DNA from: an uncultured Candidatus Saccharibacteria bacterium
GTDB taxonomy: Bacteria > Patescibacteriota > Saccharimonadia > Saccharimonadales > Saccharimonadaceae
DNA length: 64,000 nt
Reading direction: 5' to 3'
Assembly (NCBI GenBank): GCA_938036625.1
Contig: CALHQH010000046.1
Coordinates: 11,034-75,033, forward strand
The notes under the pieces are model-generated. The model was not told the origin of the DNA. It searched no databases and saw only the letters and a program-made list of their open reading frames with translations. A program made the translations under genes and the position numbers. This document shows, one piece after another, positions 35,643 through 42,920 of the stretch (position 1 is the first letter of the stretch; each line of letters begins with the position of its first letter).

Positions 35643-36899
35643 TTATAGCGTAGGTTGAGCGCGCTGGCGCCGGCGACGCCACCACCATACCAGCCAGCCA
35701 GCTAGTGCGATAAGCAGTAAGCATAGGCTCAGCAGCAGTGCCGGCACAAAGTTGCTCATCAGCTCAGCCAGTGGACCCTGCGCAGCAAACGCACCCTTTT
35801 TCTTCTTCACCGTCATCCGTTTGGTGCCCGGCTTTTTATCTTTCTTGTCGTCCTTTTTCTCTGGTGGAGTAGCCGGTGGTTTTTCGCCAGTGGTTGGAGT
35901 ACCGCTTTGGTATATCTTGACATAGTCGATAAGGAAGGTTTGGTTGGCAAACTTCTTCGATGAGTCGGGCGGGTGTTCCTCACTCTTCCACTCCACATAA
36001 TCGTTGAGAATGACATACCACGTATCGTCAAAGACCTGCTTGAATTGATTCGCATCCATGCCCATTTTTGCTGGTTTTTCTGCCGGAACTCGAGTGGTTG
36101 GATGACTTTTCTCATCGCCCGCTCGATAGTTATACACCAGCACCGGCTGGTTATCAACAAAGAATCTGACCGTCTCACCATCGTATTCCGTCGCCCAGAC
36201 ATGCCAGTTGTTCGCCAATGTCACTGGGGATGGTATGAGGTTCTCTCGGCTATGCCCTAACCCCTTCGTCTTCCATATCTGCGATGATGGGCTGTGGTAG
36301 CAGCGAATATGCGTCGTCGACCATGTGTAGGTCGGTGTCCATGAATACCACTCTAGCATGTCGAGCTCACCATAGGGGTCATTCGCTTGCTTGTTGTTGC
36401 TACAGTTGGCAAGCGTCACACTATTGCGCAGCCAAATAGCTGGGCGCGTCCCATTCTCGCCATTCCAATTAATCTTCGCTCGTACCTCCACACGGAATGG
36501 TTTATGCCCATCGAGCACCCGACCCGACTCTACTCGCCCACTCTGGTAGCGTGTCATCTTGCCAGACGGGCACGGCTCTTGGCTGGCGTTGCTATCGCCC
36601 AGTGGCTCAGCCACACTCGACACACAGTGACGCCGGGTCGTAATCTGCAAAGCGCCATTAGTCACTGCAACATTGTTGGCGCTATATGCCAAATGCTCCT
36701 TGCCATAATTATCTTTATTTTGCTGAAGAACCTTCCAATTCGATAGTGACGTCGTAAACTCCTCGTTATACACCATCTGCCACTGCTGCGCCTGGGCAGC
36801 CCCACCAAACATCACCGACAGAGCACCCGCAACAAGGACACCCACTACTCCATACACCAGCCCACCTTGTCGCTGCACTCCTATCTCCTCAGTCTGCAC
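35643..36899 (-). CDS. glycoside hydrolase family 16 (beta-glucanase-like) surface enzyme with K/D/P-rich linker and C-terminal TM anchor
   Basis: Signal-like N-terminus. RPAIWLRN and the catalytic-type motif GELDMLEW (E-x-D-x-x-E). C-terminus is PPEKKDDKKDKKPG..LLLIALAGWLVWWWRRRRQR. Confidence 0.7.
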   Translation of the reverse strand: MQTEEIGVQRQGGLVYGVVGVLVAGALSVMFGGAAQAQQWQMVYNEEFTTSLSNWKVLQQNKDNYGKEHLAYSANNVAVTNGALQITTRRHCVSSVAEPLGDSNASQEPCPSGKMTRYQSGRVESGRVLDGHKPFRVEVRAKINWNGENGTRPAIWLRNSVTLANCSNNKQANDPYGELDMLEWYSWTPTYTWSTTHIRCYHSPSSQIWKTKGLGHSRENLIPSPVTLANNWHVWATEYDGETVRFFVDNQPVLVYNYRAGDEKSHPTTRVPAEKPAKMGMDANQFKQVFDDTWYVILNDYVEWKSEEHPPDSSKKFANQTFLIDYVKIYQSGTPTTGEKPPATPPEKKDDKKDKKPGTKRMTVKKKKGAFAAQGPLAELMSNFVPALLLSLCLLLIALAGWLVWWWRRRRQRAQPTL

Positions 36900-37048
36900 T
36901 ATCCGCGCTTATATACGTTATTATATAAGTGTACACGTTTTGTCGGATTTTTCAATTGTTATAGCATGAGCGGTGTCTTGCAGGATAAAACACGGCGTTG
37001 CGTCGCAAGGCACACCACACCCACATCGCCGCACCTCTACCACTCAAT

Positions 37049-37086
37049 AGCACCCCTTGCTACGTGCTAAGAGGGGTGCTATTTTG
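37049..37086. terminator. 9-bp stem hairpin between the WhiB-like gene and the GH16 gene
   Basis: AGCACCCCT pairs with AGGGGTGCT. The T-run is on the plus strand only, so the direction of function is uncertain. Confidence 0.35.
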
Positions 37087-37130
37087 CTATAAAACGTATT
37101 GTTTGTGCGAGTGTATAGGTTGGTGTTTTA

Positions 37131-37577
37131 TCACAGACCGTCTGAGATTTGGGCTTTTTTGACTTGCCCTGCCCACCGACGCGCTGCTTCGCGCTGTCTC
37201 TTCGTTGTGCCACCAACAATCAAACTATCATCATCCTGCTCGCCCCTCATCGTGCGACCTAACTGACTTGCTAGACACTCATACTGCACCGAGCACATAC
37301 TACACACCTGCTTTGCAAACTGTGCTCGCCGAGCGATATCGGCCTTCCGAGAATACTCTGGTTTGTTTGCATCAGGGCTGGGAACATCGAGGTCAAAGTA
37401 AAATGGGCCTTTTGAGCCACACGCCGCTAAGGCAATCCACTCCGACATATCTGGTACTTTCTTTCCCCGGAGCAGCTGCTCTGCAACATATCGCGCAGGG
37501 CTTACACCATCGCTCTTCATTCGTTCTCGCATTGCCTGTGTGGCAGGTGTTGGCTTTCTTGGTTGTTCGCGTTTCAT
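37131..37577 (-). CDS. WhiB-like (Wbl) Fe-S transcription factor-like protein
   Basis: EWIALAAC..FYFD..AKQVCSMCSVQYEC..LIVGGTTKRQRE. This gives four Cys in the C-Xn-C-X2-C-X5-C arrangement plus a G[VI]WGG-like turn. Confidence 0.6.
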   Translation of the reverse strand: MKREQPRKPTPATQAMRERMKSDGVSPARYVAEQLLRGKKVPDMSEWIALAACGSKGPFYFDLDVPSPDANKPEYSRKADIARRAQFAKQVCSMCSVQYECLASQLGRTMRGEQDDDSLIVGGTTKRQREAARRWAGQVKKAQISDGL

Positions 37578-37693
37578 AGATGTTTACTCTTTTGCTATAA
37601 AAATAACGTTAGCTTCTGCATTATTCCACACGCCTGTTATTTTGCCAAGCATAAGCAGAGTAGTGCGCTGCTTATCACCCTACCCCCCATTGC

Positions 37694-38410
37694 TCAGCGC
37701 CGCCGGACGTGCCGCCGCTTGGGTTTGGGTGCGCCCCACTGTTGGCGGTCGGCCTTGGCTGTACCACCCCGTATATTGCCAGTAGGAATGATACGCTGGT
37801 ACCCCCGCAGCGCAAAGAGCAAGCACTCGGCCGCTACTGGGCACTCAGCACAGTCTTCGCGCCGCTCGGGCTCTAGCCGCTGCCCTGTCTCAGCATCGAT
37901 ACACAGTGCCAAGCGAGCAAAAGCCTGCGGCGTGGGAATGTGCCCAATATGCCGCCGCTCGGCCATACACTGCTCTGCCCAGGCAATGCGTGCCCGAGGC
38001 GTGTCATTAGCATGAACAGCGTGGTGCATAGCACCCGTGAGCATCGTGGACTGGCTCGGAAGGTCCACCGGTACGGATTCGTCCGTTAGTTGCTCCCGCT
38101 GCTTCGCTGTGAGGCCAGCACAGATCCCCGACACTCCTTCTCTCACCGCATATGCCGCACACACATCAATCACCGCACAACCAATGCAGCGCCGCAGCGC
38201 CAGTGCCGTGTCTTCTGGCTTGCCACTAAAATATTCTTCACTTGTGGCCGGGCTGCAGGCAGCATCGCGCATCCATTGCGGTGGGAGTGCCGCTCCCCTT
38301 TGCTGCCGCACGCGTATCCGCAAATAGAAGATACGCAACGCAAGGTCAGTTGGTGCGTAGCGTGGGAGTCGCTCTGGTCGTGATGGCTGTGCAGCTGGCT
38401 GCTCTTCCAT
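37694..38410 (-). CDS. protein with two tandem WhiB-like domains
   Basis: Domain 1: WMRDAAC..RRCIGCAVIDVC..GICAGLTAKQRE. Domain 2: LALC..EDCAECPVAAEC..GNIRGGTAKADR. Start moved to ATG 38410 (AAGGA RBS) because the ORF-track start overlaps the divergent gene and its promoter. Confidence 0.6.
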   Translation of the reverse strand: MEEQPAAQPSRPERLPRYAPTDLALRIFYLRIRVRQQRGAALPPQWMRDAACSPATSEEYFSGKPEDTALALRRCIGCAVIDVCAAYAVREGVSGICAGLTAKQREQLTDESVPVDLPSQSTMLTGAMHHAVHANDTPRARIAWAEQCMAERRHIGHIPTPQAFARLALCIDAETGQRLEPERREDCAECPVAAECLLFALRGYQRIIPTGNIRGGTAKADRQQWGAPKPKRRHVRRR

Positions 38411-38464
38411 ACTATCCTTATTGTACCATTCCCCGCGCCGCCAACCATAAGCGTCATCATCTGC

Positions 38465-38470
38465 TATACT
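38465..38470 (+). promoter_or_regulatory. -10 box TATACT, 6 nt upstream of ATG 38477
   Basis: Plus strand reads TATACT agaaac ATG. Confidence 0.5.
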
Positions 38471-38476
38471 AGAAAC

Positions 38477-39052
38477 ATGAATCATCCATCTCACCCGACG
38501 ACAATCCTTGCCTTCGTTGGCCTCTCAGGCGCAGGCAAGAGCGAGGCAGTCAACCACGTGGCACGCCTTGGCATCCCCAAGGTCTACGCTGGTGGCATCC
38601 TCTACGACGAAATGCGCCGCCGCGGCATCGCCATCACCCCGCAGTCGCAAGCCGAATTTCGCAAAGCCTGGCGCGAAGAGGCTGGCAAAGACATCATCAT
38701 CCGCACTGCTGCCGAGCAAATGCAGCGCCTCGCCGCCGCCGGGCAGCGCCACATCCTCTTTGACGGGCTCTACTCCTGGACGGAGTACAAGTATCTCACC
38801 CACCACTTCCCGGGTGAGCTCGTTGTGGCGGCCATCGTCGCACCCAAACAGCTCCGTCACCGCCGCCTTGCCCAGCGACCCGAGCGGCCCTTTACCGCGC
38901 AGGAAGCAATCGCCCGCGACTGGTCGGAAATTGAAGATATTGAAAAAGGTGGCCCCATCGCCATTGCCGATCACTTCATCTCCAACAGCCACGACCTCAC
39001 CGAACTCCACCAGCAAGTCGACGCCCTCTGCCGCGAGATTGGTTGGATGTAA
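38477..39052 (+). CDS. P-loop nucleotide/nucleoside kinase-like protein (dephospho-CoA kinase / dNMP kinase fold)
   Basis: Walker A ILAFVGLSGAGKSE. Size is 191 aa. Substrate specificity cannot be read from the sequence. Confidence 0.6.
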   Translation: MNHPSHPTTILAFVGLSGAGKSEAVNHVARLGIPKVYAGGILYDEMRRRGIAITPQSQAEFRKAWREEAGKDIIIRTAAEQMQRLAAAGQRHILFDGLYSWTEYKYLTHHFPGELVVAAIVAPKQLRHRRLAQRPERPFTAQEAIARDWSEIEDIEKGGPIAIADHFISNSHDLTELHQQVDALCREIGWM

Positions 39053-39181: not shown

Positions 39182-39649
39182 ATGAACAACCAGCCAACGC
39201 CCCAGCAGCCTGCCACACCGCAGCCAGCACCACAACCACAACCAGCCGTGCAGCCACAACCGGTGGCCCAACCACAGCCGCAGCCGCAACAGACATATCA
39301 ATATCAACAACCCTACCAGCAGCCAGTTGCGCCAGTGCCACAGCCAGCTATTCAGCCACAGCCAACACCATATGCCTATCCTCCCGTTCATTATGACAAT
39401 CCTGGTGAGACGCTCGGTGTCATTGGATGCGTCTTGAACTTCTTTGGCATCTCTATCGGTGGTATTCTCCTTGGCATTATTTCGCGCAATAAGTCTAAGG
39501 AAGCCGGTATGTCTACAACGTGGGGTAACGTTAGTCTGGGCTGGGGCATCTTTGGGTCAGTCTGCTGGTGTCTTATCTGGCTTTTCTGGATACTTGTGTT
39601 TGTTGGTGTATTGTCCAAGCCATCTTGGTGGTACTATTATTACTACTAA
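39182..39649 (+). CDS. small membrane protein with P/Q-rich N-terminus and two C-terminal TM helices
   Basis: GAGGAG RBS. QPQP repeats, then GVIGCVLNFFGISIGGILLGII and GIFGSVCWCLIWLFWILVFVGV. Confidence 0.65.
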   Translation: MNNQPTPQQPATPQPAPQPQPAVQPQPVAQPQPQPQQTYQYQQPYQQPVAPVPQPAIQPQPTPYAYPPVHYDNPGETLGVIGCVLNFFGISIGGILLGIISRNKSKEAGMSTTWGNVSLGWGIFGSVCWCLIWLFWILVFVGVLSKPSWWYYYYY

Positions 39650-39951: not shown

Positions 39952-40977
39952 CTACTGCTGCAAATACTCGTACAGCTTCTTGGCGTCCTTGTGCTTGCGC
40001 AGCTTGGCGAGGGCCTTGGCCTCAATCTGGCGGATGCGCTCGCGCGTCACGGCAAACTCCTGCCCAACTTCCTCCAGTGTATGGCTCTTGCCATTCTCCA
40101 GGCCAAAGCGCATTTTGATAATCTTCTGTTCGCGATCACTCAAGGTCGAGAGGATGTCTTGCACCTGCTCCTTGAGAAGCTGGTTGGAGGCCGATTCTTC
40201 AGGGCTGACCGTATCTTCGTCCTCAATAAAGTCCCCGAGCACCGACTCCTCCGAGTCGTCGCCATCGCGCCCCACACCAGCATCCAGGCTGCTAATGTCT
40301 TGCTTGATCTTCATCACATATTCGACCTTATCCGGCTCCATATCGAGCTCTTTGGCAAGCTCGGTAATGGTTGGCTCGCGGTTGAGGTCTTGCGTGAGGC
40401 GGCGCTGGGTGCGCAGCAGCTTGTTGATCGTCTCCACCATGTGGACGGGGATGCGAATGGTGCGCGCTTGGTCGGCAATCGCACGGGTAATCGCCTGGCG
40501 AATCCACCAGGTGGCATAGGTACTAAACTTAAAGCCCTTGTCTGGGTCGAACTTCTCCACCGCCCGCAGCAGCCCGGTGTGCCCTTCTTGGATAAGATCA
40601 AGAAAATCAAGGCCACGACCACTATACCGCTTGGCAATGCTTACCACCAGGCGCATATTAGCCTCGGCCATTTTGTCTTTGGCACGCTTATCGCCCTGTT
40701 TAATCCGGTAGGCTAAGTCTACCTCTTCGTCAGCACTCAGCAGCGGGATCTTGCCGATCTCGCGCAGGTGCAGCCGCACCGAGTCGTCGCTAATATCATC
40801 AAAGTATTGATTGCTGTTGAGAATCTCCTCCGGCGTGTCTTCTTCCTCAAGTGCCGCGAGGTCGGGCTCCATATCGTCGACGGCTGGATCCATCATCGGT
40901 GGCTGGGCATCGGGTGGCGCTGCCTGAGCTGTGGTTGCTGGTTTTTTTTGCTTGGTATCCTTATCGTCGGTTGCCAC
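39952..40977 (-). CDS. rpoD: RNA polymerase sigma factor, primary sigma-70 type (compact, 341 aa)
   Basis: Region 2 [24 protein letters not shown], region 3, and region 4 [27 protein letters not shown] start with an AAGGAG RBS. Confidence 0.9.
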
Positions 40978-42709
40978 GCGCTATCTCCTTGATTAATTGG
41001 TTCAGTTGCTGGCGCAAAGCGGCGGCGGCAGTCGTATCGCCGCTCTCTTCTGCTTGGCGCAGTTGGGTGGTGAGATGATGTTTGTGTTGCTGCTTGTGTT
41101 CGGTTTCGATTTGCCGCAAAAGCCTGGCGGTCTCGTAGTAGCGATCGGTCTCGCTCCACGCACCATACCGAGCGTCGGCACGTACCCGCACCATTGTAAT
41201 ATACTCGTCAAAATTTTGCAATGCTGGCGGCGTGGTAGTGAGAGGCTGTGAGTGGTGCGCTGCATAGTACTGAGCCAAAGCCTGGCGCGCCTCCCCCGCA
41301 AAGAGCTGTGGGTCAATCCGCCCAAATAATTCTTGGCTTGGCCCATCGAGCATCGCCAGTGCAAGCACGTCGTCTTGTACGAGGTAGCGATTGCGTGGCG
41401 CGGCCGCTGCCGCCTTGACGGCCTTGCGGATGGGTGCGGACGGTGCGGTTTGCTGCGCTTTGGCCTGCACAGCCTGCACACTCGAACCCACTGCCTGAGC
41501 AATCTGCCGCTGGTAGTGCTCGCGCTCCACCGGGTCGCCCAAACGATTAACAAGTGCCAGCCCAACCGTCGTAAACTGCCGCTTACCCGCTGCCGTGGTA
41601 AGATCGAGCTGCTGCCGATACTGCGCCAGGAGCCAATCCACTGCTGGCTGGGCCGCTGCAATCGCCTGCTGCCAGGCCGCTACCCCCTGCTGCTGAATAA
41701 GTTCATCAGGGTCTTTTACCCCTGCCGGCAGCGACACGACCTTCAGTTCCACTCCTGCTTGGGCGGCCAAACCAATCGCTCGCTCTGTGGCGGCCTGCCC
41801 GGCTTTATCACCATCAAAACTCAGGCGGATATCGCCCGCCAGCCGCTTGAGCGCCCGAATATGCTGCTCCGTCATGGCAGTGCCCGCCGTCGCCACTACT
41901 GCTGCTTCGCCCGCCTGATGGCTGCTTATCACATCCATATTACCCTCGACAATCACGGCATAGTCTTGGGCCCGAATCGCCTGCTTTGCCTGCATCAAGC
42001 CAAAGACGTGCCGGCCTTTATCATAGAGCAATGTTTGGGGTGTGTTGAGGTATTTTGGTGCATTGGGCACATCAGCAATCAAGCGCGCCGTAAAGCCAAT
42101 CACCTGCCCACCCGCATCCATTAATGGCACCATCATCCGCCCACGAAAGAGATCGCCATCGTAGCGGTTCACCAAGCCCGCCTCGCGCAGCTCTGCCAGC
42201 GAGAAGCCTTTTTTCTTAAGATACGTTACCAGAGCCTGACCATCACGGGGGGCATAGCCAATCTGAAACTGCTGGACAATCGCCTTGCTGAGCCGCCGCG
42301 TCCGAAACACATACGCCAGCGCATCCTGGCTCCGCACCAAGCAATGCTGATAAAAATTCGCCGCCAGCCGGTGCGTCTCAAGCAGCCGCTGCTTGCGCCG
42401 CACCAGGTCGCGATTACCCTTCTGCTCATAGAGTGAGAGATCCACCCCCGCCTTGCGCGCGAGTAACTCCAGCGCCTGCCGAAAATCCAACCCCTCTACC
42501 TCCATAATGAAGCTAAAGACATCGCCGCCCCGCCCGCTACTAAAATCATGCCAAATATTCTTCTCGGGGCTCACAAAAAAACTCGGTGTCCGCTCACTCG
42601 TAAAGGGGCTCAGGCCTTTGTAGCTCCGCCCCGCCCGCTTGAGCTGCACATACTCGCCCACCACATCCTCTATATTCAAGCGTGCCCGCACCTCTTCTTT
42701 GGCATCCAT
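40961..42709 (-). CDS. dnaG: DNA primase
   Basis: The Cys ligands of a Zn ribbon are not obvious. [36 protein letters not shown], and a TOPRIM block [18 protein letters not shown]. Confidence 0.9.
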
Positions 42710-42715
42710 AGGTAT

Positions 42716-42721
42716 AGTATA
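42716..42721 (-). promoter_or_regulatory. -10 box TATACT, 6 nt upstream of the dnaG ATG
   Basis: Minus strand reads TATACT atacct ATG. Confidence 0.5.
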
Positions 42722-42920
42722 GCGCATATGGTGTGAGCCAATCGAAGTGTGCCTGTCCTCTTTTATTTTCTCACCCTCTCGCCAAGCTTGCTGCATCCAC
42801 ACTATCCTGTTTTTTGTCAGCGAGTAGTTACATTACATATGCTTAACAGCCAGGACGAGTAACGTAAGGCAATGGAGAAATATACTTACCTCTCGCCCAA
42901 AACATACGGTATTTTAGTAT

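Follow-up and report, generated by a model that had tools for sequence, protein, structure and literature searches.

WhiB-like (Wbl) proteins are monomers with a [4Fe-4S] cluster, and an aromatic patch lets them dock on region 4 of the primary sigma factor (PMC13013590). In WhiB1, the patch comprises W3 (position AP1), F17/F18 (AP2-3), and W60 (AP4), arranged around His516-Pro517 of sigma-A; sigma-A binding by the Wbl proteins tested is reported to require this H516-P517 pair of Mycobacterium tuberculosis, and in a survey of 995 Wbl proteins, 98.7% had two or more of the patch residues, one of them at AP2-3 (PMC13013590). Phage Wbl proteins also bind the host sigma-A through the aromatic patch, and in 2026 the family was still called exclusive to Actinobacteria and actinophages (PMC13013590). 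Here we describe two Wbl genes in a stretch of 64,000 nucleotides (the window) from an uncultured Candidatus Saccharibacteria bacterium (contig CALHQH010000046.1). Both are on the minus strand and lie head to tail: geneA (37131..37577) encodes a single-domain Wbl protein of 148 amino acids, and geneB (37694..38410) encodes a protein of 238 amino acids with two Wbl domains, 10 Cys, and a pI of 9.1. We consider it likely that the pair consists of a two-domain Wbl fusion and a single Wbl protein, acting as cluster-dependent regulators, that stem from an old transfer and now sit in a recombining island. The Wbl family itself is known. What is new is a Saccharibacterial family of it, a fusion with the patch and the basic tail in different domains, and an island with three alleles. 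The family has a place in the Saccharibacterial core chromosome, against its described exclusivity (PMC13013590).

The window proteins belong to the same Pfam family as M. tuberculosis WhiB1 (6ONO) and Streptomyces venezuelae WhiB (8DY7) and follow the same logic of Cys spacing. The W-x5-C start and the aromatic residues at Cys1+8/+9 are common to these proteins, geneB domain 1, and geneA, and the Gly-containing turn followed by T-x3-R is alike. In contrast, the host is a Saccharibacterium, geneB has two domains per chain, the turn Trp is replaced in all three window domains, geneA has an insertion of ~20 residues between Cys1 and Cys2 (X38), and the cognate sigma factor has K-H and not H-P. 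The actinophage WhiB-like proteins (Gordonia phage Asapag gp65 and Propionibacterium phage G4 gp48; PHROG 472) are also encoded outside an actinobacterial chromosome, are likewise divergent, fast-evolving, and transfer-prone, and match domain 1 with similar strength (33-38% identity). Unlike them, the Saccharibacterial genes are chromosomal, lie between housekeeping genes in conserved synteny, and are not part of a prophage. A fusion of a helix-turn-helix domain (HTH_31) with Whib, found in protein P0030, joins a Wbl domain to an extra nucleic-acid-binding element, whereas the module added in geneB is a second Wbl domain. In characterised Wbl proteins, DNA is contacted by the basic tail that follows the turn, and WhiB7 has a C-terminal AT-hook; the basic tail that follows geneB domain 2 recalls these DNA-contact tails.

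The two Wbl domains of geneB

A six-frame scan of the window finds the Wbl Cys pattern inside real open reading frames (ORFs) at three places only. In geneA, it reads C53-X38-C92-X2-C95-X5-C101 and is followed by an LIVGG turn and a basic tail. In geneB, domain 1 (residues 46-108; 38087..38275, minus strand; delimited by Pfam, hhalign, and alignment to 8dy7_H) has C52-X22-C75-X2-C78-X5-C84 and then GICAG, and domain 2 (residues 164-225; 37736..37921, minus strand; delimited by Pfam, hhalign, MAFFT, and PHROGs) has C170-X16-C187-X2-C190-X5-C196 and then NIRGG. Between them lies a linker (residues 111-163; 37922..38080, minus strand), recognised by its conserved columns and its dN/dS, and the protein ends in a basic tail read off the sequence (QQWGAPKPKRRHVRRR; 37697..37735, minus strand). 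A sequence-only reading of the window had proposed both ORFs at these positions, with the C-Xn-C-X2-C-X5-C set occurring twice in geneB. Both ORFs are present with the motifs it quoted, and the repeated Cys set is backed by Pfam, PHROGs, our own profile, hhalign, and MAFFT.

The start of geneB is the ATG at 38410, which is preceded by an AAGGA Shine-Dalgarno sequence. The alignment with all relatives begins at this Met, also for those to which gene callers gave a longer form. A longer GTG-initiated ORF reaching 38494 was rejected: it would overlap the kinase gene upstream, and both the AAGGA and the relatives favour the ATG. Two public gene calls of geneB relatives (P0014 and P0025) carry a frameshift near one terminus (N or C) and run into the intergenic region, with ends that do not align to the family.

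The Pfam profile Whib (PF02467; 65 positions, gathering score 23.6 bits), the check that the sequence-only reading had called for, matches geneA in one stretch (29.4 bits) and geneB in two (51.6 bits). When the halves of geneB are scanned separately, the N-terminal one matches profile positions 1-65 with 37.3 bits, and the C-terminal one positions 22-63 of 65 with 23.3 bits (E = 9.6e-5). Domain 1 aligns end to end with S. venezuelae WhiB (8dy7_H) and matches the Wbl profile with an hhalign probability of 99.8%; sequence matches in the PDB are to WhiB and WhiB4 only. For domain 2, a hidden Markov model (HMM) that we built from 147 diverse Wbl proteins gives 23.5 bits and sets CAECPVAAECLLFAL...IRGGTAKADR on the Wbl consensus CagCpVreeClayAl...GiwGGltereR. 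Comparison of the domain-2 family alignment with the 147-protein profile by hhalign gives a probability of 96.8% (E = 2e-10, 60 columns). It places QAFARLALC of domain 2 on the Wbl motif p.W..dAAC, and thereby all four Cys in register. A MAFFT alignment of geneB residues 157-238 with 49 Wbl proteins yields four invariant Cys columns, and both methods put F164 and Cys170 on the W-x5-C motif. The Gly-rich turns of the three domains are recognisable and aligned without their Trp. The usual Wbl protein is a single domain of ~80-130 amino acids, a size that neither protein has: geneB is a two-domain protein of 238 residues, and geneA reaches 148 because of its insertion between Cys1 and Cys2. At the level of sequence, these alignments establish that geneB is a genuine fusion, with two divergent Wbl domains joined in one reading frame, and that geneA encodes a single-domain Wbl protein.

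Selection across 38 genomes (37 assemblies and the window; see below) was measured as Nei-Gojobori dN/dS. GeneB is uninterrupted in 38/38, at 78-99% identity and with an overall dN/dS of 0.19. The ratio is 0.44 in the N-terminal 45 residues, 0.13 in domain 1, 0.11 in the linker, 0.098 in domain 2, which is the lowest of the protein, and 0.77 in the tail, which remains basic in the relatives despite its fast evolution. The eight Wbl Cys and C97 are invariant in all 38 genomes. Given the low ratio, the invariant Cys, and the intact gene, domain 2 is not decaying; purifying selection acts on it as strongly as on domain 1. The linker is a His-rich segment of ~50 residues (MHHAVHANDTP.ARIAWAEQCMAERRHIGH) with many invariant columns, which matches no Pfam family and shows no similarity to Wbl (hhalign probability 0.6%). 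It may provide another metal site or serve in packing. Its Cys, C148, is kept in 37/38 genomes.

The two domains of geneB differ in the residues associated with sigma docking. We took the patch as at least two aromatic residues among AP1-4 with at least one of them at AP2-3 (PMC13013590), and mapped the positions by alignment. Domain 1 has it (W46, Y60, F61, and C97 at AP1 to AP4; three of four), as does geneA (W47, F61 with Y60 adjacent, D62, and V128; two of four, within the aromatic run F59-Y60-F61). Domain 2, with F164, L179, E180, and R214, does not, F164 being its only aromatic residue at these positions. An acidic segment (LTDES) follows domain 1, and KPKRRHVRRR follows domain 2. The retention of the patch in one domain, and its loss together with a basic tail in the other, suggest a split of jobs: domain 1 would be the sigma anchor, and domain 2, with its tail KPKRRHVRRR, would serve as a second redox-sensing and DNA-contact module. 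GeneB is in this respect a natural experiment, in which the sigma-docking patch has been separated from the cluster-binding core.

Domain 2 might instead be a degenerate Wbl remnant that binds neither a cluster nor sigma, kept as a structural or DNA-binding appendage, so that geneB would function as a one-cluster protein. It is without patch positions 2-4 (L179, E180, and R214), and only ~3/995 surveyed Wbl proteins are without the patch as defined (PMC13013590). Its weak similarity to domain 1 (hhalign E = 0.01) and its score alone below the Pfam cut-off point in the same direction. We nevertheless regard this explanation as unlikely: the spacing C-X16-C-X2-C-X5-C lies inside the Wbl range, the four Cys do not vary among the 38 genomes, the dN/dS of the domain is the lowest in geneB, and a lost sigma patch need not mean a lost cluster.

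A hypervariable island and the question of sigma docking

A scan of 185,579 species-representative genomes (GTDB species representatives) for geneB recovered the fusion in 37, on contigs of 0.1-1.0 Mb from many studies. All are titled Candidatus Saccharibacteria, one of them Ca. Nanosynbacter sp., a genus placed in the phylum Minisyncoccota and not in Actinomycetota. With 37/37 related loci in Candidatus Saccharibacteria/Nanosynbacter, the restriction of Wbl proteins to Actinobacteria and actinophages, which describes the family and is not a structural requirement, is broken. The sequence-only reading had left open whether the genome was actinobacterial or that of a non-actinobacterial episymbiont, and the second branch is the correct one, the genome being Candidatus Saccharibacteria. 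An index search found 25 proteins that are 54-95% identical to geneB, one of which is titled 'WhiB family transcriptional regulator [Candidatus Saccharibacteria bacterium]'. Most of the metagenome-assembled genomes (MAGs) that carry the locus appear to be bins from oral metagenomes, which suggests a human oral habitat.

The Wbl genes lie among core genes: dnaG (40961-42802), rpoD (39952-40977), an AAA_17 kinase-like gene, the Wbl pair, a GH16-like gene, and polA, with rpoD-dnaG ~1.5 kb from the pair. The order kinase/geneB/geneA/GH16/polA is kept in GCA_013333645.2 and in the loci that we fetched. Across 37 loci, the flanking proteins are very similar to those of the window (kinase 97-100% identity; PolA 97-99%; GH16 90-100%; RpoD 99.7-100%, identical in 31/34 loci and one residue off in three). 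GeneB ranges over 78-99%, and geneA is either 85-95% identical, ~42% identical, or undetectable by tblastn. Mean pairwise nucleotide identity over 36 loci is 0.92-0.97 in the flanks, 0.82-0.88 in geneB, and 0.60-0.73 in the geneA slot. The trough matches the two Wbl genes exactly, and identity is back to 0.93 at the GH16 promoter. It delimits a hypervariable island of ~1.5 kb (36963..38449) that consists of geneB, geneA, and the intergenic DNA.

Each genome has one of three Wbl alleles in the slot between geneB and GH16. Type I, the form found in the window, is present in 12 genomes. Type II (18 genomes) has 143 amino acids, a C-X27-C spacing, and a DVVGG turn, and only its first ~30 residues are common with type I. 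Type III (8 genomes) has the canonical GIWGG turn. The allele classes are scattered across the geneB tree: the geneB proteins of the window (type I) and of locus L001 (type III) are 99% identical, and loci L015, L016, L017, and L021 have one common geneB with alleles III, II, II, and III, respectively. Different alleles on a shared geneB point to exchange by recombination through the conserved flanks, and the distribution indicates that the geneA alleles are shuffled independently of geneB. This recombining island with its three Wbl alleles is the most unusual property of the locus, and was missed by the sequence-only reading. The five types of Saccharibacterial Wbl domains are only 25-44% identical in pairwise comparisons. 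The G+C content at third codon positions (GC3) of the two Wbl genes is 0.48 and 0.60, compared with 0.64-0.73 in the kinase gene, polA, rpoD, and dnaG; that of GH16 (0.59) is level with geneB, so that geneA alone is below GH16. Two copies of type I geneA are frameshifted (L005:6831-7264 and L007:6833-7280), while geneB is intact in 38/38 genomes, and geneA appears dispensable in some lineages.

By homology, the likely function of the pair is Fe-S-dependent regulation of transcription, with a putative partner. In the mechanism that we propose, each Wbl domain would ligate one [4Fe-4S] cluster, so that geneB would carry two, which would make it a two-cluster Wbl protein provided that both sites are loaded. 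Both gene products would be monomeric transcription factors that depend on their cluster and are sensitive to O2 or NO; they would dock on the primary sigma factor at its region 4 and contact DNA by their basic tails. Homologous recombination through the conserved flanks would swap the geneA slot among the three allele classes.

The sigma factor of the organism bears directly on this mechanism. In RpoD of the window (39952-40977, minus strand), K328-H329 replaces the H-P of the near-universal KLRHPSRS motif of region 4.2. The C-terminus of the protein aligns without gaps to KLRHPSRSKKLRDYL in the sigma-A chains with printed alignments, and from the residue ranges of the M. tuberculosis sigma chain 5uh5_F (469-527), K328-H329 falls on H516-P517. 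With K-H at the docking pair, canonical Wbl docking on the organism's own sigma factor is uncertain. It is possible that the docking has been remodelled, which fits the lost AP4 Trp, or that the partner is another protein.

This is one of several points that weigh against a pair of cluster-dependent core regulators. The binding of clusters and sigma by the window proteins is predicted from homology. Each of the three domains has another residue in place of the Trp of the G[V/I]WGG turn (C97, R214, and V128), and domain 2 alone is just under the PF02467 cut-off, with HMM alignments that reach only its C-terminal two thirds. The full-length AlphaFold2 model of geneB, built on a 21-sequence family alignment, is unusable (mean predicted local distance difference test [pLDDT] score 37, predicted template modelling [pTM] score 0.26). 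Finally, both genes evolve in a manner unusual for core regulators: dN of geneB is ~5-12x that of the kinase gene, polA, and GH16 and >100x that of rpoD, and within the geneA allele classes dN/dS is 0.22-0.45 (0.22 in type I), with the four Cys invariant. The dN/dS of the flanking genes is 0.002-0.09.

The altered docking pair and the divergence peak could also mean that the island is an interaction module directed at partners outside the cell's own transcription, either the sigma-A of the actinobacterial host, which has the H-P pair and is the target of actinophage WhiB proteins too, or WhiB-bearing phages that also attack the epibiont, against which the proteins would act as decoys or antagonists. 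An arms race would explain the hypervariability. The divergence peak is sharp, and three alleles are kept and shuffled among species. The organism's own sigma factor is without the H-P pair at the site where Wbl proteins dock, sigma-A binding depends on His516 in the tested cases, and phage Wbl proteins bind host sigma-A (PMC13013590); moreover, a Schaalia prophage binds the Saccharibacterium TM7x, with limited infection (PMC13578794). On the other hand, the Wbl proteins have neither a signal peptide nor a hydrophobic N-terminus in their sequences, no secretion or defence genes are adjacent, neither Wbl gene has a PADLOC defence-system match, and dN/dS is below 1 everywhere. We judge such a module to be quite improbable. 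The same low credence applies to its most specific form, in which the island would belong to the epibiotic lifestyle and be tuned to host sigma-A or against WhiB-bearing actinophages instead of serving the epibiont's own sigma factor, geneB would be a two-cluster device with one domain for docking and the other for sensing, and allele shuffling would reflect host or phage specificity. Together, the divergence peak, the three interchangeable alleles, and the altered sigma docking residues make the binding partner and the reason for the diversification testable. Some Saccharibacteria are genetically tractable (PMC10633639).

Competing families, distribution, and origin of the fusion

If the second Cys cluster of geneB belonged to a zinc ribbon, an EndoIII-type Fe-S loop, or some other small Cys-rich family, the double-Wbl architecture would be a coincidence of spacing. 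The sole competing match is a weak one of the C-terminal half to Pfam EndIII_4Fe-2S (E = 0.26, 12 bits), and the HMM alignments span only Cys2-Cys4 and the turn. The likeness to Wbl nevertheless runs past the Cys into the turn and helix (I-x-GGT-x3-R), and F164 and Cys170 fall on the W-x5-C motif. Searched by itself against PHROGs, the C-terminal half finds two WhiB families, one family without known function, and nothing more; geneA matches WhiB PHROGs, and the PHROGs matches overall are to WhiB families and two families of unknown function. Significant matches to domain 2 in Pfam and PHROGs are thus of WhiB type, bar that one PHROG, and BLASTP aligns the domain to single Wbl proteins at 34-40% identity over 68-73 residues. 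No zinc-ribbon family in Pfam or PHROGs matches the cluster; the sequence-only reading had named such an assignment as an outcome that would count against it. An AlphaFold2 model of domain 2 from a multiple sequence alignment of 49 diverse Wbl proteins has a pLDDT of 71, and the best 13 PDB matches that Foldseek finds for it are all Wbl structures, if weak (best E = 0.024, template modelling score 0.44); the Wbl alignment biases the fold, so that the model is compatible with a Wbl domain and says no more than that. An origin in another Cys-rich family is therefore very improbable.

An exhaustive phmmer search with geneB over 1.84 billion cluster representatives gives three matches below 1e-10, which are the family itself, one frameshifted gene call, and one fragment. 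The remaining 201 matches cover only residues ~40-115, i.e., domain 1, and no other match to domain 2 exists among these representatives. A Pfam check of five long matches (P0030, P0075, P0157, P0160, and P0140) and of one two-stretch match found no second Whib domain in any of them. The open literature holds nothing relevant on tandem or double WhiB domains, nor on WhiB in Saccharibacteria, TM7, or the candidate phyla radiation (CPR). The double-Wbl architecture, which the sequence-only reading had thought undescribed, is therefore found nowhere else in the literature or in these searches, which were seeded with geneB, so that unrelated double-Wbl proteins may exist elsewhere.

The few Saccharibacteria in cultivation live as epibionts of Actinobacteria. 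For the origin of the genes, the natural hypothesis is a transfer from Actinobacteria or their phages, because Wbl genes are otherwise known only from these groups, which include the known hosts. The databases searched hold no close actinobacterial donor and no close phage relative. The closest Wbl relatives outside the family have ~37-43% identity, and one of the non-family matches is from Egibacteraceae. When used as a query of the index, the type III allele retrieved no actinobacterial donor, just the members of its own narrow family. With no close donor, any transfer was old or was followed by fast divergence. The sequence-only reading, which had suggested transfer from an actinobacterial host, thus remains plausible on the source, with no sign that the event was recent: the relatives are at 37-43%, no phage is close, and GC3 is not raised. 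The family was probably acquired from Actinobacteria or their phages long ago and is now diversifying fast, in which case the locus is a tangible example of regulatory genes flowing between the partners of an episymbiosis.

We rejected a recent phage origin, since IMG/VR has one weak locus (29% identity) and the GenBank phages match domain 1 only (33-38%). A phage-mediated route into Saccharibacteria is conceivable in principle, as the Schaalia prophage binds TM7x and infects it to a limited extent (PMC13578794). We also rejected a recent internal duplication as the source of the second domain, given the hhalign E-value of 0.01 between domains 2 and 1 and the 25-44% identity among the five domain types. 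Contamination of the MAGs by actinobacterial or phage DNA, or an assembly or frameshift artefact, is effectively refuted, for although some public gene calls (P0014 and P0025) and the type I geneA of L005 and L007 are frameshifted, the same order from the kinase gene (with dnaG-rpoD beyond) to GH16-polA recurs in 37 assemblies on contigs of 0.1-1.0 Mb, which in independent assemblies excludes both contamination and misassembly, no actinobacterial or phage relative is close, and a GC3 of 0.48-0.60 is far from actinobacterial values.

Expression signals and neighbouring genes

The expression signals around the Wbl genes are weak. Upstream of geneA, a promoter-like site (37620..37648, minus strand; TTGGCA-17-AATAAT with a TG) is a match to consensus only (10/12). 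GeneB and the kinase-like gene (38477-39052, plus strand) are separated by a divergent intergenic region of 66 bp (38411..38476), read from the sequence, which bears out the earlier proposal that geneB is divergent from a P-loop kinase gene. A scan for promoter consensus found no full sigma-70 consensus in these 66 bp; they contain TGgTACAAT on the geneB strand. Downstream of geneA, ~50 nt past its stop, lies a hairpin (37030..37130, minus strand; stem UAGCACCCCUCU/AGGGGUGCUA) with a minimum free energy of -33.8 kcal/mol and a z-score of -4.84; 0/200 shuffles are equally stable. It is without a U tract and is a possible terminator candidate. The hairpin falls within the part of the island that varies between allele types. 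No Rfam structured-RNA family matches within the window.

Three neighbours have further features. In the kinase-like gene, TATACT precedes the ATG by 6 nt, a spacing that suggests a leaderless mRNA or one with almost no leader. The AAA_17 product, 97-100% conserved, matches part of a PADLOC model for an anti-phage dCTPase, namely its kinase-like region (positions 211-329 of 630, E = 1.8e-7), and NCBIfam gives a weak match to anti-phage dCTP deaminase. Between the kinase gene and rpoD, a small protein without a Pfam match (39182-39649, plus strand) is rich in Pro and Gln over its long N-terminal half and has hydrophobic segments towards the C-terminus. The GH16-like protein (35643-36899, minus strand; 418 amino acids) is hydrophobic at both ends and Lys/Asp/Pro-rich before its C-terminal anchor, and is probably a surface glycan hydrolase. 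Its gene is the first conserved one past the variable island.

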